This document shows, in pieces, positions 6,647-17,614 of a stretch of 64,000 nt of DNA. Position numbers and translations under genes: made by a program. Source of the DNA: an uncultured bacterium (GTDB lineage: Bacteria > Babelota > Babeliae > Babelales > Vermiphilaceae); the NCBI GenBank assembly GCA_963707655.1, contig OY970172.1, positions 352,001 to 416,000 of the forward strand, in the 5' to 3' direction. Numbering within the stretch: position 1 is the stretch's first letter; every line of letters begins with the position of its first letter. A model generated the notes under the pieces. The model did no database searches. It was not told the origin of the DNA and saw only the letters and a program-made list of their open reading frames with translations.

Positions 6647-7804
6647 ATGAAAAAGACATTATTCGTCATCCTATCGCTGGCTTGCCACAGTTGCTGGGCG
6701 ATGGTCGCAGTTGAAGACGCCCCATTCGGTCAGTTGGCTCTGTTTGACCATGGATTTCAACCGGGTACACCGCTGCCACCCGTTGGAGAAGGGGATGAAC
6801 TTGCACAATGGGCGATGCGGGAGGCAGTTTCTACGCCTGATGCAGCAAACAGCATCGATGCAGTATTGTCTGCAGAGCAAAAGAAAGAAGTCTCTGCTCT
6901 TCATGCAGCATCTTTGGTTACGGTAAAAAAAGGAATGAAAAAGAGAAAAATAGCGAGAAGCGCGCTGTGGTGCGAGGAATGCAGATGTCGGGCAGTAAAT
7001 CTGAAGAACTTTGATCTGCACAAGCAAAGCAAGGGCCATTTAGAAAAAACAGGGCAGCCGTTACCACATTGGTCAGTATACAATTTCACCTGCGCACCAT
7101 GTGAATACGGGTCGTTTCGTAAGCAGGACTTGAATGCGCACATGCTCAGCAATTCTCACCTAATACAAACAGGACAATCGTTGCCGGATTGGCAAGTACA
7201 TAAATACAGATGTAAAACATGTAAATATGGAACGAGCAAAAGAACAGCCATGGATATCCACCTGCTCAGCAAGAGCCATTCAGAAAAAACGGGACAATCG
7301 TTATTAGATTGGTCAACATATGATTTTGCCTGCGAACCATGTGAATATGGAACTTGGAAAAAAGATCACTTCGATCTGCACATGCTCAGCAAGAGCCATT
7401 TAAAAAAAGTGGGACAATTGTTATCAGATTGGCAGGCATGTAAATACAAATGCGAAATATGTGAATATGGCATCGCTCAAAAAGTAAAATTTAATGAACA
7501 CATGCTAAGCAAAGGCCATTTAGAGAAAATAGGGCAATCGTTGGCGTGGGATGCATATCAATATAAATGTGCACCATGTGAATATGGAACCCCGCTGAAA
7601 AGAAGCTTGAATGCACATATGCTCAGTAAGGACCATTTAGAAAAAACAGGACAATCGTTACCAGCTTGGTCAGAATATGATTTTACCTGTGCACTGTGTA
7701 AATATGGAACTCCGCATAAAAGTAACTTAGATAGGCATATGCGAAATAGTAGGCATAAGAAAGCTTATTTGAAATCAATTGAAGTCCTGATTAGGAAAGA
7801 ATAG
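6647..7804 (+). CDS. Secreted tandem C2H2 zinc-finger protein, 7 fingers (array gene 1)
   Basis: Signal peptide MKKTLFVILSLACHSCWA-M; KKGMKKRKIAR basic patch; seven C-x2-C-x12-H-x5-H units with 39-40 aa period. Confidence 0.9.
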   Translation: MKKTLFVILSLACHSCWAMVAVEDAPFGQLALFDHGFQPGTPLPPVGEGDELAQWAMREAVSTPDAANSIDAVLSAEQKKEVSALHAASLVTVKKGMKKRKIARSALWCEECRCRAVNLKNFDLHKQSKGHLEKTGQPLPHWSVYNFTCAPCEYGSFRKQDLNAHMLSNSHLIQTGQSLPDWQVHKYRCKTCKYGTSKRTAMDIHLLSKSHSEKTGQSLLDWSTYDFACEPCEYGTWKKDHFDLHMLSKSHLKKVGQLLSDWQACKYKCEICEYGIAQKVKFNEHMLSKGHLEKIGQSLAWDAYQYKCAPCEYGTPLKRSLNAHMLSKDHLEKTGQSLPAWSEYDFTCALCKYGTPHKSNLDRHMRNSRHKKAYLKSIEVLIRKE

Positions 7805-7844
7805 TTGAGGCCGCAATAGTAATCGCAAGGAAAATAATAAGATG
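7802..7844 (+). repeat. Conserved intergenic spacer of the zinc-finger array (copies near 8881-8923, 9965-9996, 11149-11191)
   Basis: TAG(C/T)T(A/G)AGGC..AATAGTAATCGCAAGGAAAATAAxAAxATG recurs between genes and contains an AAGGA ribosome-binding site. Confidence 0.85.
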
Positions 7845-8852
7845 AAAAAGATATTACTCGTTATTCTATTGCTGGCTTGCCCCAGCTGCTGGGCGATGGT
7901 TGACGTTGAATACGCTCCATTCAGTCAGTTGGCTCTGTTTGACTATGGATTTCAACCAGACGCGGCGTTACTAATGGAAGAAGAGGGGAATGAGGACGAA
8001 CTTGCTCAATGGGCAATGCGGGAGGCAGTTTCTGCCCCCGATGCGACGAACAGCAATGATGCAGTATTGTCTACAGAACAAAAGAAGGCAGTCGCCGCTC
8101 TTCATGCGGCATCTTTGGTTACCGTAAAAAAAGGCATGAAACAGAGAAAAATAGCGAGAAGCAAGCTGTGGTGTAAGGAATGTAAATATCGGGCAGAGAG
8201 GCCGGTTGATTTTGATCGGCACAAGCAAAGCAAGGGCCATTTGGAAAAAATAGGACAGCCGTTGCCACATTGGTCAATATATGAATTTACCTGCGCGCCA
8301 TGTGAATATGGGGTCGTACGTAAAAAGGATTTGAATACACACATGCGAAGCAAAGGGCATTTAGAAAAAACGGGACAATCATTGCCAGATTGGCAGGCAT
8401 ATGAATTTACGTGCGCACCATGTGAATATGGAGCTTTGCAAAAAGCAACCTTGAATCTGCACATGCGGAGCAAGGGTCATTTAGAAAAAACAGGACAATC
8501 GTTGCCAGCTTGGCAAGCATATGAATTTACTTGCGTACCATGTGAATATGGGGGCGTGCGTAAGGAGGATTTGAATGCGCACATGCAAAGCAATTCCCAC
8601 CTAATAAAAACAGGACAATCGCTACCAGATTGGCAAGCATATGATTTCACCTGTGCCACATGTAAATATGGAGCCTTGAAAAAAACAACCTTGAATGACC
8701 ACATGCAAAGCAAAAGCCATTTAGAGAAAATAGGGCAATCGTTGGCGTGGGATGCATATAAATACAGATGTGAAACATGTAAACATGGCTTCTTGCAAAA
8801 AGGGCATTTTGATAGACATATGCGCAGTAAGAATCATAAAAAGCTTATTTGA
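7842..8852 (+). CDS. Secreted tandem C2H2 zinc-finger protein, 6 fingers (array gene 2)
   Basis: Same architecture; six fingers; C-terminal tail frameshifted relative to paralogs. Confidence 0.9.
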   Translation: MKKILLVILLLACPSCWAMVDVEYAPFSQLALFDYGFQPDAALLMEEEGNEDELAQWAMREAVSAPDATNSNDAVLSTEQKKAVAALHAASLVTVKKGMKQRKIARSKLWCKECKYRAERPVDFDRHKQSKGHLEKIGQPLPHWSIYEFTCAPCEYGVVRKKDLNTHMRSKGHLEKTGQSLPDWQAYEFTCAPCEYGALQKATLNLHMRSKGHLEKTGQSLPAWQAYEFTCVPCEYGGVRKEDLNAHMQSNSHLIKTGQSLPDWQAYDFTCATCKYGALKKTTLNDHMQSKSHLEKIGQSLAWDAYKYRCETCKHGFLQKGHFDRHMRSKNHKKLI

Positions 8853-8920
8853 AAGCATTGAAATCCTGACTAGGAAAGAATAGCTAAGGCCGCAATAGTA
8901 ATCGCAAGGAAAATAATAAA

Positions 8921-9967
8921 ATGAAAAAGACATTATTCGTTATCCTATTGCAGGCTTGGCCCAGCTGCTGGGCTATGGTTGACGTTGAAGACGCTCCATT
9001 CAGTCAGTTGGCTCTGTTTGACCATGGATTTCAACCAGACGCGGCGTTACTAATGGAAGAAGAGGGGCATGAGGACGAACTTGCTCAATGGGCAATGCGG
9101 GAGGCAGTTTCTACACCCGATGCGGCGAACAGCAATGATGCATTACTGCCTACAGAACAAAAGGAGGCAGTCGCCGCTCTTCATGCGGCATCTTTGGTTA
9201 CCGTAAAAAAAGGCATGAAAAAGAGAAAAATAGCGAGGAGCGAGCTCTGGTGTAAGGAATGCAAACATCGGGCAGTAAATCTGTATAACTTCGATCTGCA
9301 CAAGCAAAGCAAGGGCCATTTAGAAAAAACAGGACAACCATTACTCCATTGGTCAGCATACAATTTTACCTGCGCGCCATGTGAATATGGGGCGCTTCGT
9401 GATAAGGACTTGAATGTGCACATGCTAAGCCGTTCTCACCTAATAAAAACAGGACAATCGTTACCAGATTGGCAAGCATATAAATACAGATGTGAAACAT
9501 GTAAATATGGAGCTTGCAAAAAAACAACCTTCGATGTGCACGTGCACAGCAGGAGCCATTTAGAAAAAACAGGACAATCGCTGCCAGATTGGCAAGCATA
9601 TGAATTTACGTGTGCACCATGTGAATATGGAAGCCCGCAAAAAAGTAACTTGAATTTGCACATGCAAAGCAAAGGTCATTTAGAGAAAATAGGGCAATCG
9701 TTATCAGATTGGCAAGCATATGAATTTACTTGCGAACCATGTGAATATGGGGCCGTGCGTAAGGACGATTTGAATGCACACATGCACAGCAGGAGCCATT
9801 TAGAAAAAACAGGACAATCGTTACCAGATTGGTCAGCATACAATTTCACCTGTGCACTATGTGAATATGGAACCCCGTATGAAAATGACTTAGATAGACA
9901 TATGCGCAGTAAGAAGCATGAGAAAGCTTATTTGCAATCAATTGAAGTCCTGACTAGGAAAGAATAA
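8921..9967 (+). CDS. Secreted tandem C2H2 zinc-finger protein, 6 fingers (array gene 3)
   Basis: Same architecture; six fingers. Confidence 0.9.
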   Translation: MKKTLFVILLQAWPSCWAMVDVEDAPFSQLALFDHGFQPDAALLMEEEGHEDELAQWAMREAVSTPDAANSNDALLPTEQKEAVAALHAASLVTVKKGMKKRKIARSELWCKECKHRAVNLYNFDLHKQSKGHLEKTGQPLLHWSAYNFTCAPCEYGALRDKDLNVHMLSRSHLIKTGQSLPDWQAYKYRCETCKYGACKKTTFDVHVHSRSHLEKTGQSLPDWQAYEFTCAPCEYGSPQKSNLNLHMQSKGHLEKIGQSLSDWQAYEFTCEPCEYGAVRKDDLNAHMHSRSHLEKTGQSLPDWSAYNFTCALCEYGTPYENDLDRHMRSKKHEKAYLQSIEVLTRKE

Positions 9968-9993
9968 ATAGTAATTACAAGGAAAATGATAAG

Positions 9994-11151
9994 ATGAAAA
10001 AGATATTACTCGCTATCATAATGCTGACGGCCTCCAGCGGCAGGGCGATGCTTGAAGTTGAAGATGCTCCATTCGGTCAGTTGGCTCTGTTTGACTATGG
10101 ATTTCAATCAGGTACGCCGTTGTCACTGGTTGTAGAAGGGGACGAACTTGCACAATGGGCGATGCGGGAGGGAGCTTCTACACCTGATGCGGCAAACAGC
10201 ATCGATGCATTATTGTCTACAGAACAAAAGAAAGCAGTCGCTGCTCTTCATGCGGCATCTTTGGTTACCGTAAAAAAAGGCATGAAACAGAGAAAAATAG
10301 CGAGAAGTAAGCTGTGGTGCAAGGAATGCAAATATCGGGCAGGAAATCTGAATCACTTTGATGAGCACAAGCGAACCAAGGGCCATTTGGAAAAAACAGG
10401 ACAACCATTACCACATTGGTCAACATATGATTTTTCCTGCGAACCATGTGAATATGGGGTCGTGCGTAAGAAGGATTTGAATATACACATGCGAAGCAAA
10501 GGCCATTTAGAAAAAACGGGACAATCGCTACCAGATTGGGCAGCATACGATTTTACCTGCGCACCATGTGAATATGGAGCTTTGAAAAAAGCAACTTTGA
10601 ATTTGCACAAGCGAACCAAGGGCCATTTAGAAAAAACAGGACAATCGCTACCAGATTGGTCAACATATGATTTTTCCTGCGAACCATGTGAATACGGAAC
10701 CATGAAAAAAACAACCTTGAATGACCACATGCAAAGCAAGAGCCATTTAGAAAAAGTAGGACAATCGTTATCAGATTGGCAAGCATACGATTTCACCTGT
10801 GCACTATGTAAATATGGCACCACGCAAAAAGTAAACTTGAATGCACACATGCAAAGCAAGGGCCATTTAGAGAAAGCAGGGCAATCGTTGGCGTGGGATG
10901 CATATCAATATACATGCGCACCATGTGAATATGGAACCCCGCAAAAAAGATGCTTGAATGCACACATGCTCAGCAAGGATCATTTAGAAAAAACAGGACA
11001 ATCATTGCCAGATTGGCAAGCATACAATTTCACCTGTGCACTATGTAAATATGGAACTCCGCATAAAAGGAACTTAGATAGACATATGCGCAGTAAGAAG
11101 CATGAGAAAGCTTATTTGAAATCAATTGAAGTTCCGGCTAGGAAAGAATAG
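9994..11151 (+). CDS. Secreted tandem C2H2 zinc-finger protein, 7 fingers (array gene 4)
   Basis: Same architecture; seven fingers. Confidence 0.9.
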   Translation: MKKILLAIIMLTASSGRAMLEVEDAPFGQLALFDYGFQSGTPLSLVVEGDELAQWAMREGASTPDAANSIDALLSTEQKKAVAALHAASLVTVKKGMKQRKIARSKLWCKECKYRAGNLNHFDEHKRTKGHLEKTGQPLPHWSTYDFSCEPCEYGVVRKKDLNIHMRSKGHLEKTGQSLPDWAAYDFTCAPCEYGALKKATLNLHKRTKGHLEKTGQSLPDWSTYDFSCEPCEYGTMKKTTLNDHMQSKSHLEKVGQSLSDWQAYDFTCALCKYGTTQKVNLNAHMQSKGHLEKAGQSLAWDAYQYTCAPCEYGTPQKRCLNAHMLSKDHLEKTGQSLPDWQAYNFTCALCKYGTPHKRNLDRHMRSKKHEKAYLKSIEVPARKE

Positions 11152-11188
11152 CTAAGGCAGAAATAGTAATCGCAAGGAAAATAACAAG

Positions 11189-11986
11189 ATGAAAAAGACA
11201 TTATTCGTCATCCTAGTGCTGGCTTGCCCCAGCTGCTGGGCGATGGTTGAAGTTGAAGATGCTCCATTCGGTCAGTTGGATTTGTTTGACTATGGATTTC
11301 AACCGGGCGCGGCGTTGCTGATGGAAGAAGAGGGGAATGGGGACGAACTTGCGCAATGGGCGATGCGGGAGGCAGTTTCAGCACCCGATGCGGTGAACAG
11401 CAATAATGCATTACTGTCTACAGAACAAAAGAAGGCAATCGCTGCTCTTCATGCGGCATCTTTGGTTACCGTAAAAAAAGGCATGAAAAAGAGAAAAATA
11501 GCGAGAAGTAAGCTGTGGTGCAAGGAATGCAAATGTCGGGTAATAAATCTGAAGAACTTTGATTTGCACAAGCAAAGCAAGGGCCATTTAGAAAAAACAG
11601 GACAGCCGTTACCACATTGGTCAGCATATGAGTTTACTTGCGCACCGTGTGAATACGGGGCTTTTCTTAAGCAATCTTTGAATGCACATATGCGAAGCCG
11701 TTCCCACCTAATAAAAACAGGGCAATTGTTACCAGTTTGGCAAGCATATAAATACAGATGTGAAATATGTAAATATGGAACTCCGCATAAAGGAAACTTG
11801 AATACACACATGCAAAGCAAGGGCCATTTAGAGAAAACAGGGCAATCGTTGGTGTGGGATGCACATAGATACAGATGTGAAATATGTGAACGTGGCTTCT
11901 TGGAAAAAGGGCATTTTGATAGGCACATGCGCACTAAGAAGCATGAGAAATCAGTAACTAAAAAAACAATCGTGAGGAAAAAATAA
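11189..11986 (+). CDS. Secreted tandem C2H2 zinc-finger protein, 4 fingers (array gene 5)
   Basis: Same architecture; four fingers. Confidence 0.9.
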   Translation: MKKTLFVILVLACPSCWAMVEVEDAPFGQLDLFDYGFQPGAALLMEEEGNGDELAQWAMREAVSAPDAVNSNNALLSTEQKKAIAALHAASLVTVKKGMKKRKIARSKLWCKECKCRVINLKNFDLHKQSKGHLEKTGQPLPHWSAYEFTCAPCEYGAFLKQSLNAHMRSRSHLIKTGQLLPVWQAYKYRCEICKYGTPHKGNLNTHMQSKGHLEKTGQSLVWDAHRYRCEICERGFLEKGHFDRHMRTKKHEKSVTKKTIVRKK

Positions 11987-11987
11987 G

Positions 11988-12929
11988 ATGAAAAAGATAT
12001 TACTCGTTATCCTGTTGCTGGCTTGCCCCAGATGCTGGGCGATGGGCGAAGAAGCCTCATACTACGATCAGTTGGCCCTGTTTGACCATAGATCTCAACG
12101 AGATGTTCCCTTTTTATCAATGGAACAATGTGATGTGGACGGAATCGCGCCATGGATTATTGATGAGGAAAATCCGTTTAGCCAGTGGAATCCATCTGAC
12201 TATGAATTGCGACTAGGCACGCCATTATTGACACCGAGGCAAGAAGATGATGGGTGTGAGCTTGAGTCTTTGGCAATGCAGGGCAATGTTGTGGATCCTC
12301 ATGAGGAGCTGGACATCGGTGCATCATTGTCTACAAAACAAAAGAAAGCAGTCGCCGCTCTTCATGAGTCATCTTTGATTACCGTAAAAAAAGGTATGAA
12401 AGAGAGAAGAATAGCTAGGGGTAAGTTGTGGTGCAAGGAATGCGGATATAATGTCTGGCATAAAGGAAACTTGAATGCACACATGAAAGGCAAAGTTCAT
12501 CTAAGAAGAACAGAACAATCGTTACTAGATTGGCAAGAGCATAAACACAGATGTGCACCATGCAAATATGGTGACTGGCATAAAGGACACTTGAATGCAC
12601 ACATGAAAAGCAAAGCGCATCTAAGAAAAATAGAACAATTGTTGTCATCGGTATCGGGGCAATATCAATGTCCACCATGTGGATATGACACCCCTTTGAA
12701 GCGTAGCTGGAATGCGCACGAGCGTAGTAGGGACCATTTAGAAAAAACAGGACAGTTGTTAAAAGATTGGCGCTCATATGAATATAAATGTAAAACATGT
12801 AAACATGGCATGGCTTCCAGGCTTCAATGGGATACACACGTGCGAAGCAAGCAACATGTGCAAACAAGTAAACTGCTTATTGAAAATCAACGGAAAAGCG
12901 CCAGAGTAAAAGAAATAGCTAAAGCTTGA
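11988..12929 (+). CDS. Secreted tandem C2H2 zinc-finger protein, 4 fingers, divergent with longer acidic N-region (array gene 6)
   Basis: Signal peptide ...PRCWA-M; long D/E/W-rich N-region; four fingers. Confidence 0.88.
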   Translation: MKKILLVILLLACPRCWAMGEEASYYDQLALFDHRSQRDVPFLSMEQCDVDGIAPWIIDEENPFSQWNPSDYELRLGTPLLTPRQEDDGCELESLAMQGNVVDPHEELDIGASLSTKQKKAVAALHESSLITVKKGMKERRIARGKLWCKECGYNVWHKGNLNAHMKGKVHLRRTEQSLLDWQEHKHRCAPCKYGDWHKGHLNAHMKSKAHLRKIEQLLSSVSGQYQCPPCGYDTPLKRSWNAHERSRDHLEKTGQLLKDWRSYEYKCKTCKHGMASRLQWDTHVRSKQHVQTSKLLIENQRKSARVKEIAKA

Positions 12930-13015: not shown

Positions 13016-14767
13016 TTATCTTATTGATTTAAGAACATCAATCAACTCTTTGAGCGATTTTTGCAAGGTATAGACCGATGCCGGCACTGGAACCAGTTGC
13101 ATTAAATTAGCATTGGGGACTGGTTGAGGTTCGCCCAAAAATGCCCATCGTTTATCAGCAGTAATGGTGCTTTCCTGATTTTTTATAGCATCAATCTGTT
13201 GCATTATTGAATTAATTGTTGCGGTTTTTGCGATTATTTCATCAACATCTATCTTATAATATTTTTTTTGTTCCGGGCTGAACTTGCTAAAGCGAACACG
13301 AAGAGCATTTGCTTTCTCCATAGTGCGGTCCGCGGCGTTTATTGCGCTTTGCAACGCATTTGCTGCTTGAGTATTAACGGGTGTAGCAGTACTCAGTACC
13401 AAAGTCTCTATATTTTTAAAGTTATTATCAATAAGAATATCAGTTACTCTATCCAGAGAAGAAGATAAATTGTCAAAGCTTTTTTCAGTTCGTTTATCTT
13501 CTTCACCTTTCTTTTTTTCATCCTCTTTTTTTGGTTTATCTGTTGCTGCCGGTTTAGCTGCTTCTTTTTTGCCTTCAGCCGGTTTTGGCATTGGCGCAGC
13601 GCCGCCTGCTTTTGGTGCGGATGCACCGCCGCCAGCGTTACCTCCTGTTTTACCGGTACCGCCGCCGGTTGATCGTGTTCCGGCTTCGGTTGATGAAGGT
13701 TGGTTGTCTGCAGAACCAAAACGAGGTTGTCCTGTTTGCTGATACAATGCATCATTTGAATAGCCACTGCCATATGAAGGGGTTTGTCTTTGCACCTTGC
13801 TGTATTGTGGTGCGGGTGCCTCATAACCAGCGGTGATTACCGGCGTTGCTGGGCGGGGGGCAGCACTTTTTTGTGCTTCCTGTATGCTTTTTGTTTTTTC
13901 TTCACTTAATTTAGCGGCCTTTGGTCCGTATGTGCCAATGATGCTTTCAAGGCTTGCGGGCAAACCGAGTTTGTAAAATGCCTCACTAATGCAGCTGAGC
14001 GCTTTTTTAAAGGCGGTGCTTGATTTTTCAGTCAAAGTAGTAGAACCAAATTCAGGAATTTCAATATTTGGTTCATTGATGCGTAACACACTTTCTACGC
14101 GTGCGAGGTTGTTGCGTACAACTTCATTTTTAATCAATTCAGGCAAATATTTATATTCTTTTGTTTTTGGATCGCGATCTTTCATCTTTGAGAGTTGTTG
14201 TATCAAAAGCTCTATCTGGCCTTTTAGTGTTTCCCAGCGGTCAAAAGATGGATTGATGCCGCCTTCTTTGAGCCATGCGCTCACTTTTATTGAAAAATCG
14301 GGAATAAGAGCACTTTTGCTTATTATTTTTTCAAGTCTTGTTAAAAGACTATCAATAATGGCAGCAGCTTCATCTATTTTTGAAGAAGCAATCGGTTTAG
14401 CCGCCGGTTTTGTTTCCTGCGTTACCGGCGTAGAAACAACAGGAGTTGTTTCTGTTATTGGTGTTTCAATCGGTTTAATTTTTTCTTCCAGTTGAGTAGC
14501 CTCTTTTTCAACTTCTGCCCAAAACTCTTCAAGAAATTTTTCCTGCTCGGCCGGTGGTAATTTAGCAACTTCCTTTTCAAGCTCTTGCATGATTTCCATA
14601 AAAAATTGCTGTTGCTGTTCCTCATTGAGTCCCTGTACCATCTCCATCATTTCGCGTTCTTGCGGATCTAAGCGAGAAAGGTCGAGCGCGCTCGCGCTTG
14701 TCACTACGATTGCAGATCCCCATATAATGAGCGATAAGAGCACAAGAAGATTTCTGAAAAAATTCAT
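13016..14767 (-). CDS. Secreted/membrane-anchored hypothetical protein with helical domains and a Gly/Pro/Lys-rich linker
   Basis: 583 aa; N-terminal signal (…SASA-LD); Q/E-rich helix; low-complexity GGGTGKTGGNAGGG linker. Confidence 0.8.
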   Translation of the reverse strand: MNFFRNLLVLLSLIIWGSAIVVTSASALDLSRLDPQEREMMEMVQGLNEEQQQQFFMEIMQELEKEVAKLPPAEQEKFLEEFWAEVEKEATQLEEKIKPIETPITETTPVVSTPVTQETKPAAKPIASSKIDEAAAIIDSLLTRLEKIISKSALIPDFSIKVSAWLKEGGINPSFDRWETLKGQIELLIQQLSKMKDRDPKTKEYKYLPELIKNEVVRNNLARVESVLRINEPNIEIPEFGSTTLTEKSSTAFKKALSCISEAFYKLGLPASLESIIGTYGPKAAKLSEEKTKSIQEAQKSAAPRPATPVITAGYEAPAPQYSKVQRQTPSYGSGYSNDALYQQTGQPRFGSADNQPSSTEAGTRSTGGGTGKTGGNAGGGASAPKAGGAAPMPKPAEGKKEAAKPAATDKPKKEDEKKKGEEDKRTEKSFDNLSSSLDRVTDILIDNNFKNIETLVLSTATPVNTQAANALQSAINAADRTMEKANALRVRFSKFSPEQKKYYKIDVDEIIAKTATINSIMQQIDAIKNQESTITADKRWAFLGEPQPVPNANLMQLVPVPASVYTLQKSLKELIDVLKSIR

Positions 14768-14851
14768 ATTTTTCCTTTTCGTTACGGTGTGTTAGATAGA
14801 ATTCTAATGTACCCTAGTATAAGGCAATTGCTATCAGTTACAATAGAGTTT

Positions 14852-15229
14852 ATGAAAAAACAGAACAAAAAAGGATTTCTTCTTATTGAATTTATTATTG
14901 CATGCGCATTGCTTGTATCGATAGCTGCACTGATGAGTTTGTATTTTTCTGCCATGGCAAAACAGTATTGCCAAGCAAAGCGCCATTTAGAAACTTTTCG
15001 TCTGTTGCAGCACGCGTTGTATGAAGATGGATCAGCTGCTGCGCATAACGCGGGAACGATAGACGCGCAAGAATTCATGTTGCCACCTCTTAAAGCAGCA
15101 TTGCGAAACAAGGGATATAGCAATGCGTTTCACCAAACATTAATTATTAAAGTAGTGAGCATGCCTGAGGATCAAGATGCTCGATTGATGCGCTTGGAGA
15201 GCATTTGTGTGCGTAGGAATGCAGTATGA
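14852..15229 (+). CDS. Prepilin-type N-terminal cleavage protein (minor pilin/pseudopilin)
   Basis: MKKQNKKG-FLLIEFIIA class III signal (G-F...E5). Confidence 0.8.
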   Translation: MKKQNKKGFLLIEFIIACALLVSIAALMSLYFSAMAKQYCQAKRHLETFRLLQHALYEDGSAAAHNAGTIDAQEFMLPPLKAALRNKGYSNAFHQTLIIKVVSMPEDQDARLMRLESICVRRNAV

Positions 15230-15663
15230 AAAAGCGGGGATTCACCTTAATTGAATGTATTATCGCCATAGCGCTGTTTGCGCTCATTGCGTTTTTAACA
15301 ACTCATTTTAGCGTACAATGTTATACAACAATTACTCAATTGCGCACGCAAAGTTCTGCGTTGATGATGTTTAATACTGCCTTTGATTTTCTTGCGCGCG
15401 ATCTTAAAATGGCGCCGACCATGAGTGAGTGGAAATCAAAAAACAAAAATGATTATACGTGGCGGCAGGGGGATGCCCAATTACGATGGCGCATAGATGA
15501 AAACAAGTTATTACGCAGCTGTGGTAATCGTTCAAGCGTTGTTGCATTGCATGTTGAATCGTTAACTATAGAAGAAGCGCGTAATGGATTTAATCTATTT
15601 TTAAAACTTGATAACAACGGACATTGTTATCAAACGAAACAATGGGTAAGGGTAGTGCGATGA
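15226..15663 (+). CDS. Prepilin-type protein (GspJ/PilW-like)
   Basis: MKKRG-FTLIECIIA, then ...LARDLKMA; ATGA overlap with the previous gene. Confidence 0.85.
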   Translation: MKKRGFTLIECIIAIALFALIAFLTTHFSVQCYTTITQLRTQSSALMMFNTAFDFLARDLKMAPTMSEWKSKNKNDYTWRQGDAQLRWRIDENKLLRSCGNRSSVVALHVESLTIEEARNGFNLFLKLDNNGHCYQTKQWVRVVR

Positions 15664-16055
15664 ATAAACCGGGGATGGCCCTTATTACCGTTTTTCTTTG
15701 TTTGTCTGCCTCATCCGTAATCATTCTTACCGCTTATCAAGCAATAGCGCTATTGCCCATTTTTTCCCGTGATCATATTAAATATCAAGCAGATGAACTG
15801 ATGCTTGATGGGGCTTGTATATATGCGCGCGAATTTTGCAGAGAAAATTGGAAACGCCTTGTTTTTTATGCTCAGCAGGGGGAAAAACAAGAGATATTTT
15901 TTGCGCCATCATCATCACCCGGTGTTCGAGCGCGCATTGGTATTAACTTGGGTACCAAAGAGCAGCAGATAGAAATATCGTTATTAAAAAAAGGCCAGCA
16001 GAGCTGTATGCGAAAAATATCTATAAATCACAACTGTGCCATTGCCTTACAGTAA
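15660..16055 (+). CDS. PilX/GspK-like minor pilin
   Basis: MNKPG-MALITVFL (G-xAL without E5, typical of PilX/GspK); ATGA overlap. Confidence 0.65.
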   Translation: MNKPGMALITVFLCLSASSVIILTAYQAIALLPIFSRDHIKYQADELMLDGACIYAREFCRENWKRLVFYAQQGEKQEIFFAPSSSPGVRARIGINLGTKEQQIEISLLKKGQQSCMRKISINHNCAIALQ

Positions 16056-16076: not shown

Positions 16077-16422
16077 TTATGCCCGTCTCGCGCGTCTGGT
16101 AGCAGTTCTATGCGCAGTGGTGTTGTTGTGTTGAGTAAGATGTGTAACAATATCAGTGCCATACTGGCACGTTTTATACGTATATTCATGAAGGTACCAC
16201 GCTAAGAGCGGTAGTCCGGTAGCACGCTTCTTGGTCACCGCCAATCGAGCTATTTTTAAGTTTTTGGGCGCTCTTATATCCAGAGGCTCTGTATTGGCAT
16301 TGAGTCTACTGGCGTTTGTGAGCAGCCAATTCAATCTCATCTGTTATTGCCAGATCAATTTCTTGGGCAATGGCAAGGGAAAATGTGCTGATTATGAATA
16401 GTATAATTATTTTTGGCATCAT
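16077..16422 (-). pseudogene. Degenerate paralog of the 17000-17614 zinc-finger gene
   Basis: The frame MMPKIIILFIISTFSLAIAQEIDLAITDEIELAA stops at HKRQ*. Homology resumes in another frame (…KNLKIARLAVTKKR…GLPLLAWYLHEYT-YKTCQYGTD…H…H). First Cys replaced by Tyr; only one finger remains. Confidence 0.8.
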
Positions 16423-16999: not shown

Positions 17000-17614
17000 T
17001 TATTGTTGTGCTCGTAAGGTTTGCAAGTCAATCGGTGCCACGCGTTCGGCGGCAGTTCTATGTTTGGCGCTATTGTTGTGTGAGGTAAAACGTTCGCGCC
17101 GATCAGTGCCATACTCGCACGTTTTACACATATATTCACGAAGGTACCACGCTACTTGCGGTAGTCCAGTAGCAGCTCTATGCGCAGTACTGTGGTTATG
17201 TTGAATAAGATGTGAAAAAACATCAGTGCCATACTTGCACGTTGCACACGTATATGCACGAAGGTACCACGCTACTTGCGGTAGTCCGGTAGTAGTTCTA
17301 TGTTTGGCGGTGTTATTATGTTTAACAAGGTCTGCAGGCTGATCAGTGCCATACTTGCAAATCTCACATATATATTTACGCTTACGCCACGTTGAAGCAA
17401 CACGCTTTTTGGTAGCTAATCGAGCCGCTTTTAAGTTTTTGGATACTTTTACGCTCGTGGGCATGGGCTTTGCATCAGCATTTACTTTCCCTATGTTTGC
17501 CAGTATAGTAACAGCCAATTGAATATCACCGATTCTTACTGGATTGACTTCTTGAGCCATTACCAGAGAAAATGTGCTGAGTATAATTATTTTTATCATC
17601 ATCATCATCATCAT
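17000..17614 (-). CDS. Secreted tandem C2H2 zinc-finger protein, 3 fingers (second subfamily)
   Basis: Signal MIKIIILSTFSLVMA-QE; basic KKRVASTWRKRK; three C-x2-C-x12-H-x5-H units with 40-aa period and linker TGLPQVAWYLRxY. Exact start within the (ATG)6 run is uncertain. Confidence 0.88.
   Translation of the reverse strand: MMMMMMIKIIILSTFSLVMAQEVNPVRIGDIQLAVTILANIGKVNADAKPMPTSVKVSKNLKAARLATKKRVASTWRKRKYICEICKYGTDQPADLVKHNNTAKHRTTTGLPQVAWYLRAYTCATCKYGTDVFSHLIQHNHSTAHRAATGLPQVAWYLREYMCKTCEYGTDRRERFTSHNNSAKHRTAAERVAPIDLQTLRAQQ

Follow-up and report, generated by a model that had tools for sequence, protein, structure and literature searches.

A tandem family of putatively exported zinc-finger arrays with a variable recognition face in a Dependentiae bacterium

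Introduction

Among described zinc-finger proteins, those of the zf-met/JAZ/U1-matrin type (PF12874, PF12171, PF12756; ZNF346/JAZ, Xenopus ZFa, wig-1) share with the family reported here a C-x2-C-x12-H-x5-H spacing in which an S/G-K pair precedes the second His, a helix that runs past the first His, and long non-TGEKP linkers with array periods near 40 residues. Unlike them, our fingers have an aromatic residue two positions past the second Cys (C-x2-C-x-Y-G), as in classical fingers of the CTCF, REST and ZFAT type, and a strongly conserved 15-residue linker with a nearly invariant Trp that the eukaryote-like matches lack; moreover, their recognition face is hypervariable and the proteins are bacterial and, by prediction, signal-peptide-bearing. 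Krueppel/TFIIIA-type C2H2 arrays (CTCF, PRDM9, KRAB-ZNFs) are alike in their beta-beta-alpha fold, in variation at helix positions -1, 2, 3 and 6, in the residue types at -1 and +3, and in evolving via tandem duplication and shuffling of fingers. They differ in H-x3/4-H rather than H-x5-H spacing, in a 28- rather than 40-residue period, and in having TGEKP linkers.

Two bacterial systems are also relevant. TAL effectors of Xanthomonas, delivered to the eukaryotic host by type III secretion, combine tandem repeats that differ at few recognition residues with nuclear localisation and acidic activation regions; their likeness to the present family is a functional analogy only, with no relationship in sequence or fold. 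Ros/MucR proteins, like ours, are bacterial and have a Cys2His2-type zinc site, but their one finger belongs to another, larger fold, and they are cytoplasmic, without a signal peptide.

Here, we report six finger genes which we tentatively regard as recently expanded, exported, host-directed effectors that would bind host nucleic acid, with double-stranded DNA as the best guess. Export as effectors is highly probable and nucleic-acid binding likely; DNA as the ligand is conceivable and RNA somewhat less so.

Results and Discussion

Gene family and organism

The window, i.e., the whole 64,000-nucleotide stretch analysed, is part of a single 1,091,075-bp contig of a Dependentiae (TM6) genome of about 1.09 Mb. 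Relatives of its IleRS (55/55 loci, best 84% identity) have titles naming Dependentiae, Babeliales, TM6 or Vermiphilus, and the bearer of the six genes is an obligate intracellular Dependentiae (TM6) bacterium, a parasite of protists.

The six paralogous genes lie in tandem on the plus strand at 6647-12929. Paralog 1 (385 aa, 6647..7804) comprises a predicted signal peptide, an acidic region, a basic patch and 7 fingers (6965-7756); zf-C2H2_2 (37.6 bits) and zf-C2H2_jaz (27.5 bits) both match it above the Pfam cut-off, and its AAGGA stands 8-10 nt upstream of the ATG. It is followed by paralog 2 (336 aa, 7842..8852; 6 fingers, 8166-8837), paralog 3 (348 aa, 8921..9967; 6 fingers, 9245-9919), paralog 4 (385 aa, 9994..11151; 7 fingers, 10312-11103), which was folded with AlphaFold2, paralog 5 (P0001; 265 aa, 11189..11986; 4 fingers, 11513-11944) and paralog 6 (P0002; 313 aa, 11988..12929; 4 fingers, 12426-12857). 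The last is the most divergent, with about 51% identity to paralog 4 and a longer acidic region. Scanning the translations of the six ORFs with a regular expression gives 7+6+6+7+4+4 = 34 fingers, and their start at 6965 and end at 12857 agree with the first-pass annotation, which had placed 34 fingers at 6965..12860. Judged from the DNA, these are real genes, given the short gaps between them (1-68 bp), the AAGGA conserved 5' of each ATG in all six, and a GC content that matches that of the flanks. In genes 1-4, Tandem Repeats Finder also detects 120-bp arrays.

On the minus strand, a divergent family member (P0003; 204 aa, 17000..17614) has a signal-peptide-like N-terminus, a 120-bp tandem repeat and 3 fingers; these follow the 40-aa unit of the six paralogs, linker position 11 again being Trp. 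A related 87-aa remnant with one finger (minus strand, 16077..16340; profile match G000:C1:368083-368238), in which Tyr replaces the first Cys of the finger, is probably a decayed copy.

The finger unit

The C-x2-C-x12-H-x5-H spacing is kept in 34/34 fingers, with 136/136 zinc ligands in place. Around the ligands, most scaffold columns have an entropy below 1.5 bits, in line with the near-fixed scaffold already noted in the first reading of the sequence: x2 is Y in 28/34, x3 is G in 27/34, +1 is K in 25/34 (noted before as mostly K), +4 is L/F in 31/34, +5 is N/D in all 34, and the third and fourth residues after the first His are S (29/34) and K (26/34). All nine helix heptads quoted earlier are present. 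The 28 internal linkers are 15 residues long in 23 cases (40-aa period) and 14 in 5 (39-aa period), and are conserved at L1 (27/28), K3 (26/28), G5 (26/28), Q6 (28/28), L8 (28/28), W11 (27/28) and Y14 (23/28).

This unit had been proposed as a new 40-aa scaffold with a Trp-containing linker. The unit is real and recurs in divergent relatives, where internal linkers are of 15 residues in 10/12 and Trp stands at linker position 11 in 9/10 of these; the 40-residue period itself, however, is already known, and eukaryote-like zf-met arrays with this period and without the Trp are among the matches (P0024, P0138). Among the 150 best of 1355 matches from 1.84 billion representatives, the Trp-linker unit is confined to this small family; it recurs in four metagenomic protein clusters and in the divergent paralogs. 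Literature searches found no earlier description of this finger family.

Variation on the recognition face

The earlier suggestion that variation concentrates at the base-contacting helix positions is borne out by column entropy, which is highest at +2 (3.50 bits), followed by x5 (3.21), -1 (2.88), +3 (2.72), +6 (2.70) and x4 (2.50). Positions +2, -1, +3 and +6 thus rank first, third, fourth and fifth among 40 columns, and four columns named beforehand would all be among the top five by chance with a probability of 5.5e-5. Nor is variability uniform across the repeat. Across 13 independent pairs of nearest-neighbour fingers, differences occupy 25/52 cells at the four helix positions and 92/384 at other non-ligand positions (odds ratio 2.9, Fisher p = 7e-4), i.e., between the closest fingers the four change about twice as often as the others. 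An all-pairs comparison was saturated (pS about 0.6). Counted by parsimony (SLAC-like) on a FastTree tree of the 34 units, the four positions have an omega of 1.08 (N 85.7, S 21.3) versus 0.47 elsewhere (p = 1.2e-4); please note that units of 120 nt resolve the tree poorly, that it takes no account of recombination, and that near-saturated synonymous sites make parsimony counts give omega too low.

The residue types agree in part with the canonical ones of C2H2 DNA recognition claimed at first: -1 is R/K/Q/H/N in 28/34 and +3 is N/D/H/T/S in 30/34, a restricted, polar set, but +6 is A/L/I/V in 21/34 and so mostly hydrophobic. The (-1, 2, 3, 6) quadruplets are 31 distinct ones among 34 fingers, and the order of finger orthology groups differs between paralogs. 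Three processes diversify the family: genes duplicate in tandem, entire finger modules are shuffled from one paralog to another, and substitutions concentrate on the recognition face.

The omega of the four positions does not exceed 1 (p = 0.39), and in single-site tests linker position 13 alone reaches significance (p = 0.047, uncorrected). By itself an omega of about 1 fits relaxed constraint, and one may imagine that there is no code at all, the exposed helix face being where a small zinc-stabilised fold is constrained least and where recent paralogs, which may be redundant or decaying, drift; the decayed copy at 16077-16340 would be in keeping with this. We consider such drift improbable, since the six frames are intact with ribosome-binding sites, every zinc ligand is kept, the alphabets at -1 and +3 are restricted, omega elsewhere is 0.47, and parsimony counts underestimate omega near synonymous saturation. 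The readable DNA code put forward in the first-pass annotation is nevertheless at most a hypothesis, given an omega near 1, a mostly hydrophobic +6, a 15-residue non-TGEKP linker and zf-met/JAZ scores at least equal to the classical ones; the first two also set the family apart from Krueppel/TFIIIA-type arrays, omega not being clearly above 1.

Finger type and putative ligand

Pfam C2H2-clan models match all six proteins above cut-off (zf-C2H2_jaz 6/6, zf-met 4/6, zf-C2H2_2 4/6), with the Krueppel-type zf-C2H2 (PF00096) in 1/6; finger by finger, zf-met is found in 12/34, jaz in 9/34, zf-H2C2_5 in 9/34 and zf-C2H2 in 8/34. When non-family matches among the representatives are limited to modest lengths, zf-met-type arrays come out best (P0006, 2e-47; P0015). 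In the AlphaFold2 model of paralog 4, the units are beta-beta-alpha and the helix is predicted to break, then continue past the first His; the finger with its extension (residues 1-32) superposes on 7uqz_I, 6qx9_A2, 9j8p_A (TUT1), 2mkn_A (JAZ) and 5zwo_W with rmsd 2.1-3.2 A.

Together with the H-x5-H spacing, the S-K pair before the second His and the long non-TGEKP linkers, these matches argue for a different ligand of the same exported effectors, namely structured or double-stranded host RNA, bound as by JAZ, ZFa, wig-1 and other U1/matrin-type fingers, e.g., to trap the precursors of small RNAs or to attach to ribosomal or spliceosomal RNA. On this view the variable face would adjust which RNA shapes or partners are preferred instead of forming a DNA code, and the Lys conserved at +1, at linker position 3 and four residues past the first His would suit backbone contacts. 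We hold RNA binding to be unlikely, though a serious competitor. The RNA-associated U1/matrin/JAZ-type superpositions are weak (Z 2.0-2.6) and tied with classical fingers, and the PDB profile search is led by DNA-bound C-x2-C-x-Tyr fingers (CTCF 4.6e-11, PRDM9, ZNF64, ZFAT), with no JAZ/ZFa-type chain among the 60 of 128 matches listed. Generic double-stranded-RNA binders, moreover, would have no obvious need for so many distinct quadruplets, and a sister architecture in other Dependentiae has classical TGEKP fingers.

Positions x4 and x5 and linker positions 12, 13 and 15 are variable too, which would give a larger contiguous surface, and +6, x4 and x5 hold mostly hydrophobic or small residues. 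Protein-binding C2H2 fingers exist, and the paralogs might use the variable helix face to dock on different host proteins. This is rather unlikely, as the finger arrays are net positive (+2 to +18), the scaffold conserves basic residues, and the Pfam and PDB matches are all nucleic-acid-associated finger types. Our preferred, still tentative, ligand is double-stranded DNA, which would be read non-contiguously, the structured 15-residue linker with its Trp being incompatible with the canonical 3-bp register.

Export and proposed mode of action

Read by eye, the N-termini of all six proteins show MKK followed by a hydrophobic stretch and, ahead of residue 20, a small-residue site, and the proteins are putatively signal-peptide-bearing. 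The order of parts is the same throughout: signal peptide, an acidic region of 71-111 residues (net -8 to -16) studded with hydrophobics, a basic NLS-like patch of KKGMKKRKIARSK type (net +6 to +8) just before finger 1, and the finger array. The first-pass annotation missed these N-termini, and six signal-peptide genes of an intracellular bacterium change what the finding is: with eukaryote-style fingers that vary on the face normally used for reading nucleic acids, the proteins look like host-directed, target-diversified effectors.

We propose that the signal peptide would lead the proteins through Sec, with release via a type II-like secretin pathway or vesicles. Such a route has been put forward for effectors of other Dependentiae as well. 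Inside the protist host, the patch of basic residues would act as a nuclear localisation signal and the acidic region as an effector or activation-like part, while the array of 4-7 fingers, each with its own residue set at -1, +2, +3 and +6, would bind host nucleic acid. If this is double-stranded DNA, the proteins would be transcription-factor mimics. That the proteins pass beyond the periplasm, enter the nucleus or have an activation function is suggested by composition only.

Two secretin genes of the genome score above cut-off; neither the type IV marker VirB4 nor the type III marker FHIPEP was found in it (completeness 88.6%), the latter a difference from TAL effectors, as is the putative nature of the DNA binding and of any code. 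Passages of a report on TM6 genomes (PMC4776705) describe type II secretion components with two gspD copies, and passages on one cultured Dependentiae bacterium (PMC6561590) give signal peptides on 44% of CDS, putative effectors included. A signal peptide alone is evidence for crossing the inner membrane only, and the proteins could instead act in the periplasm or at the surface, as zinc-stapled structural rods or zinc buffers, or be cytoplasmic Ros/MucR-like regulators. We regard a role not directed at the host as very improbable: by Pfam and AlphaFold2 the modules are beta-beta-alpha fingers rather than beta modules, the six proteins have no Pfam match to Ros/MucR at E up to 1, signal peptides appear typical of Dependentiae effectors in the passages cited, and other Dependentiae combine this acidic-basic-finger layout with classical fingers of eukaryote type.

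Other Dependentiae

A profile search gave matches in 7/261 Dependentiae species genomes. Signal-peptide C2H2 arrays, as predicted from sequence, occur elsewhere in the phylum with the same order of parts (G093 locus L105, G155 locus L107, G040 locus L014), also as tandem paralogs differing in finger number. Unlike ours, however, their fingers are canonical, i.e., 28-residue, TGEKP/TDERP-linked and H-x3-H, and the 65-residue two-finger profile does not match these three loci at E <= 1e-5. In G093 there are three tandem genes, each with a signal peptide, an acidic region, a KKRKR patch and classical fingers on TGEKP linkers, numbering 6, 5 or 4, and G155 has one gene of the same layout. Proteins with the same acidic DEL-A-QW motif are found in a further genome, G210.

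Organization of the finger gene cluster

Six tandem genes on the + strand (window 6647-12929, paralogs 1-6) of 385, 336, 348, 385, 265, and 313 codons are separated by gaps of 1-68 bp, and an AAGGA motif is conserved 8-10 nt 5' of every ATG. A pattern scan of the translations found C-x2-C-x12-H-x5-H in 34/34 fingers (7+6+6+7+4+4 per paralog, span 6965-12857), in agreement with the number and coordinates of the fingers in the first-pass annotation, and all 34 lie within the Cys2His2 spacing of the C2H2 clan, i.e., C-x2-4-C-x12-H-x3-6-H. The internal linkers (n = 28) have 15 residues in 23 cases and 14 in five, giving a period of 40 or 39 residues; their consensus is LEKTGQSLPDWxAYx, not the seven-residue TGEKP type, and the period is not 28. 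Tandem Repeats Finder reported a 120-bp period in genes 1-4, and the long antisense ORFs across the cluster are by-products of the repeats.

A single 1,091,075-bp contig contains the window at bases 352001-416000. The cluster, whose GC content equals that of its flanks, is surrounded by housekeeping genes (Mur ligase, IleRS, and ribosomal protein L9), with a further neighbour that we read from its translation as a probable DnaB-like helicase. All 55 confirmed IleRS relatives in the species-genome collection (55/55) belong to uncultured bacteria, the best at 84% identity; the informative ones are assigned to Dependentiae, Babeliales, TM6, Vermiphilaceae, or Vermiphilus pyriformis (Vermiphilus at 56% identity), and the organism carrying the cluster is therefore a member of Dependentiae. 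Two papers describe this phylum as obligate intracellular protist parasites (PMC6561590, PMC4776705). None of the sequencing runs listed with the locus is an RNA run, and the DNA runs gave only short contigs of low depth.

Variation at the recognition-helix positions

The first-pass annotation had proposed that variation is focused on the canonical base-contacting positions -1, 2, 3, and 6, and that per-column entropy and dN/dS would reveal it. With the first His numbered +7, the entropy maxima over the 34 units are +2 (3.50 bits), x5 (3.21), -1 (2.88), +3 (2.72), +6 (2.70), and x4 (2.50); no zinc ligand varies, and in the scaffold and linker most columns stay below 1.5 bits. The four canonical contact positions (+2, -1, +3, +6) take ranks 1, 3, 4, and 5 of 40, with a chance probability of 5.5e-5 for columns named beforehand. 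To allow for the descent of the fingers by duplication, 13 nearest-neighbour pairs with no finger in common (79-92% identity at the nucleotide level) were also compared: the four positions differ in 25/52 cells vs 92/384 for the remaining non-ligand positions (odds ratio 2.9, p = 7e-4). All-against-all per-site pN/pS was saturated, so tree-based and nearest-pair counts were used instead. A parsimony count on a FastTree tree, which rests on short sequences, ignores recombination, and has synonymous sites close to saturation, gave omega of 1.08 at the four positions vs 0.47 elsewhere (p = 1.2e-4 for the difference, p = 0.39 for the excess over 1).

From the entropy, pair, and omega results, the concentration of variation is therefore confirmed, with qualifications: omega is not significantly above 1, and linker positions 12, 13, and 15 vary as well, as do x4 and x5. 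Hypervariability at -1, 2, 3, and 6 is one feature of classical Krueppel-type arrays that these fingers share, and the (-1, 2, 3, 6) quadruplets are almost all different (31 distinct among 34 fingers).

Omega close to 1 cannot by itself separate diversifying selection from relaxed constraint, and taken alone it is compatible with unconstrained drift of a helix face that carries no code. What stands against drift is the restricted choice of residues, i.e., R/K/Q/H/N at -1 in 28/34 fingers and N/D/H/T/S at +3 in 30/34, and we regard this explanation as improbable. Position +6 is A/L/I/V in 21/34 fingers, which counts against a textbook DNA code. A further explanation is that the fingers dock onto proteins, which we consider unlikely.

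A hybrid finger unit

All six paralogs fall in the C2H2 clan of Pfam. zf-C2H2_jaz (PF12171) scores 27.5, 34.8, 25.5, 36.5, 43.7, and 22.8 bits, i.e., above its cut-off of 22.6 in 6/6, while zf-met (PF12874) exceeds its 21.2 in 4/6, zf-C2H2_2 passes its cut-off in 4/6, and the classical zf-C2H2 (PF00096) exceeds 25.2 bits in only 1/6 (27.5), the others being at 11.1-23.2 or unlisted. Scanned finger by finger at E <= 0.01, zf-met is found in 12/34, jaz in 9, zf-H2C2_5 in 9, zf-C2H2 in 8, and zf-C2H2_2 in 7. Pfam listed no Ros/MucR family for the six paralogs at E <= 1; Ros/MucR proteins are cytoplasmic and have a single finger, whereas the paralogs have 4-7 fingers and signal-peptide-like N-termini. 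Classical Krueppel-type arrays differ as well, having a 28-residue period and TGEKP linkers in place of the 40/39 residues and other consensus found here. With the zf-met/JAZ type the paralogs share the H-x5-H spacing (34/34), a helix predicted to break and continue past the first His, and non-TGEKP linkers of 14-15 residues; the linkers of ZFa, at 34-44 residues, are longer.

The PDB sequences matched by a profile of 28 two-finger units are led by CTCF (4.6e-11), PRDM9, ZNF64, and ZFAT, which are DNA-bound C-x2-C-x-Tyr fingers, with alignments that end before the second His; phmmer with paralog 2 found no PDB match at E <= 0.01. In the AlphaFold2 two-finger model (mean pLDDT 76.3), a hairpin is followed by a helix (13-20), a break, a short second helix (23-29) that takes in the second His and the first part of the linker, and a further helix of one turn at the Trp; each unit is thus predicted to have a beta-hairpin-then-helix order, and the inter-finger orientation is probably arbitrary. 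The whole-protein model has the same strand-helix pattern, with mean pLDDT 55 and pTM 0.19 that make it fit for secondary structure only. Foldseek with the two-finger model found no PDB match at E <= 0.001, the best entries that miss this threshold being generic DNA-bound C2H2 pairs (TM ~0.36-0.40). A wide VIA-align search gave nine chains at Z >= 2 and none at Z >= 5, too weak for subfamily assignment: finger plus extension aligns to the U1/matrin/JAZ-type chains 7uqz_I, 6qx9_A2, 9j8p_A, 2mkn_A (JAZ), and 5zwo_W at Z of only 2.0-2.6, tied with classical fingers, and the second finger aligns to classical fingers at the same weak Z. ESM Atlas neighbours, all eukaryotic or giant-virus C2H2 clusters (0.91-0.92, few shared features), serve as leads only, the recognition value of 1681 being below the 2300 reached by 91/100 proteins of known families.

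The most apt description of the unit is a hybrid, with a classical "aromatic-swapped" front half, a zf-met/JAZ-like back half (H-x2-S-K-x-H and extended helix), and then a conserved 15-residue linker with Trp at position 11. In a second reading, the paralogs would be RNA-binding effectors of the JAZ kind; it is a close contender to the DNA reading, and is itself rather unlikely.

Protein architecture and possible export

In all six paralogs the N-terminal segment is followed by an acidic region, a basic patch, and the finger array. The N-terminal segment of ~19 residues begins with MKK and a hydrophobic run and ends with C-W-A or G-R-A; by inspection, MKK, 12-14 hydrophobic residues, and a small-residue site are present in 6/6. 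Its composition suggests a Sec signal peptide. A lipobox-like L-A-C occurs in only 4/6, and we consider a lipoprotein signal unlikely because the Cys is absent from the other 2/6. The acidic region (71-111 residues, net -8 to -16) is studded with aromatic and aliphatic residues, the basic patch is of the VTVKKGMKKRKIARSK type (net +6 to +8) and would, judged by composition, resemble a nuclear-localisation signal, and the finger arrays carry net +2 to +18. No Pfam family matched the N-terminal 106 residues.

Components of an outer-membrane export route were found, i.e., two secretin genes in the genome (122.5 and 119.9 bits) and prepilin-type genes beside the cluster; in the genome, at a completeness of 88.6%, neither a type III (FHIPEP) nor a type IV (VirB4) marker turned up. 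Right after the cluster's neighbour come three small genes that overlap (window 14789-16055, +), and at least one of them, 15226-15663, encodes an N-terminal prepilin methylation motif (Pfam N_methyl, 29.4 bits); these genes may encode pseudopilins belonging to the machinery of type II secretion or of a type IV pilus. The prepilin motif and secretins agree with published reports that type II secretion parts and two gspD copies are common to TM6 genomes (PMC4776705) and that 44% of the CDS of one cultured Dependentiae, putative effectors included, have signal peptides (PMC6561590). The protein at window 13016-14767 (-), of 583 aa, has a signal-peptide-like start and long low-complexity stretches rich in Glu/Lys/Pro/Ala/Gly, with no Pfam family above cut-off.

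Our leading reading, to which we would give not quite an even chance, is that the paralogs are exported, host-directed nucleic-acid-binding effectors, the likeliest target being nuclear DNA read non-contiguously. Gene structure, finger chemistry, variability pattern, phylum membership, the presence of secretins, and the recurring architecture are direct observations. The paralogs would be exported beyond the periplasm and imported into the host nucleus, where the fingers would read nuclear DNA non-contiguously and the acidic region might have an activation-like role. A non-host role is highly improbable. In its strongest form, which would make the specificities readable from sequence and rewritable by helix exchange as the first-pass annotation had imagined, the proposal becomes a TALE-like system of Dependentiae: Sec/type II-exported arrays of 40-residue Trp-braced units, each using -1, 2, 3, and 6 to read either a few bp of the host's DNA or a defined feature in RNA, with the paralogs as differently addressed regulators of host genes. 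We hold this extended form to be quite doubtful.

If the paralogs enter the host nucleus, they would form a new class of bacterial nucleomodulins and a natural experiment in the diversification of zinc-finger specificity under host-parasite conflict, parallel to TAL effectors and KRAB-ZNF/PRDM9. The compact Trp-braced 40-residue unit may also be of use to protein engineers if its binding mode is modular. Eukaryote-type C2H2 arrays are rare in bacteria. Full-text searches of articles found nothing linking C2H2 fingers with Dependentiae or with secreted bacterial effectors, and nothing on secreted bacterial C2H2 arrays; the only prokaryotic C2H2 literature that surfaced, Ros/MucR, stood in a reference list. 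The domain class is already known; what is new is the Trp-braced 40-residue unit, its bacterial secreted context, and an expansion focused on the recognition face. Zinc-finger arrays would join, as candidate effectors of this poorly known phylum, the ankyrin-repeat proteins that PMC6561590 reports as typical candidates.

Relatives within and beyond the phylum

Among 261 species genomes, the strict two-finger profile at E <= 1e-5 matched the own genome only, and a broader eight-protein profile matched 7/261 genomes at E <= 1e-4 and 4/41 relatives at E <= 1e-3. In a genome of the same genus (G001), three finger genes with signal peptides lie in tandem, and one of them has the Trp linker; another genome (G210) encodes proteins that share the acidic DEL-A-QW motif and have zf-met-like fingers. 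Three tandem genes in G093 (locus L105, G093:C2:1-2355) encode a signal peptide, an acidic region, KKRKR, and 6/5/4 classical TGEKP-linked fingers; similar genes with a signal peptide, an acidic region, a KKRKR-type patch, and classical TGEKP/TDERP-linked C2H2 fingers occur in G155 (L107) and G040 (L014), with 4-6 fingers across the three loci. The genes of these last three loci apparently encode secreted Krueppel-type arrays in bacteria. The signal peptide-acidic-basic-C2H2 layout is therefore a recurring, sporadic Dependentiae theme, of which the window holds the largest array among those found, made of a finger unit that is a variant of its own.

Outside the phylum collection, a word-indexed homology search with paralog 4 returned two matches, both the window's own genes; the six-protein alignment found no relative in genome contigs, and the two-finger profile none in viral or metagenome contigs. 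When 1.84 billion representatives were searched exhaustively with the profile, 1355 matches reached E <= 0.001. The best 150 of these are mostly long eukaryotic C2H2 proteins, e.g., of beetles, with many fingers of other spacings, or zf-met arrays; among these 150, only four foreign clusters, P0011 (fragment P0105), P0032, P0050, and P0098, combine the 40-residue unit and the Trp linker with an N-terminus that resembles a signal peptide. The contig of a member of the P0098 cluster (L103) is gene-dense and has a second small finger gene; by eye, a hydrophobic stretch like that of a signal peptide opens several of its ORFs. In seven divergent members (two from the own genome, one of the same genus, and four metagenomic), 10/12 internal linkers have 15 residues, and 9 of these 10 have Trp at linker position 11.

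Within the own genome (G000), a divergent protein of 204 aa with three fingers is encoded at window 17000-17614 (-) and a probably decayed finger-gene copy lies at window 16077-16340 (-). Just upstream of the window, at G000:C1:350158-351042 (L011:1158-2042), a 294-aa protein with two fingers is an outlying member of the family; its start resembles a signal peptide, a region rich in Pro/Ala and a basic motif of the HGMKK type follow, and its fingers are spaced by 40 residues and joined by a Trp linker. A second finger family occupies three tandem genes at G000:C1:725791-730060 (L024:791-5060). Its proteins (399, 524, and 440 aa) begin with what looks like a signal peptide and contain 3-5 repeats, each ~85-90 residues long as judged by eye, in which a C-x2-C-N-Y...H-x5/6-H finger alternates with C-x-C...H-x-C, joined by a conserved ALTKIATTDQERRIQAAW segment. 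In one protein examined, Pfam gives only zf-C2H2_2 (36.6 bits); this family looks unrelated to paralogs 1-6.

A metagenomic protein of 384 aa, P0021 (longest contig 210,972 bp), has six fingers with the C-x2-C-x-[YF] front and the S-K-x-H-L-E-K-x-G back found in the unit of paralogs 1-6, without the Trp, and preceding them an N-terminal region that is GIY-YIG-like by eye; it has no relative among the viral contigs.

Evolution of the array

By nearest-neighbour and tree analysis, the 34 units fall into some ten orthology groups, including a constant first finger, a 14-residue-linker group, and two kinds of terminal finger. Because the order and number of these groups differ across the six paralogs, the sequences indicate tandem gene duplication and an unequal exchange in which whole finger modules moved, with later substitutions focused on the helix face. 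In a peat metagenome run, a 272-nt contig joins 9909-10075 to 7924-8028 (start of paralog 4 to the N-terminal region of paralog 2) over 32 shared bases; it is likely an assembly (k-mer) join through the paralogous N-terminal repeat, and a recombinant array of a related strain is the weaker alternative. A protein of 71 aa, P0016, from a 245,884-bp ENA contig, matches paralog 2 exactly over the first ~59 residues and differs thereafter; it may be either a frameshifted allele from an almost identical strain or the result of a different assembly of the repeats.
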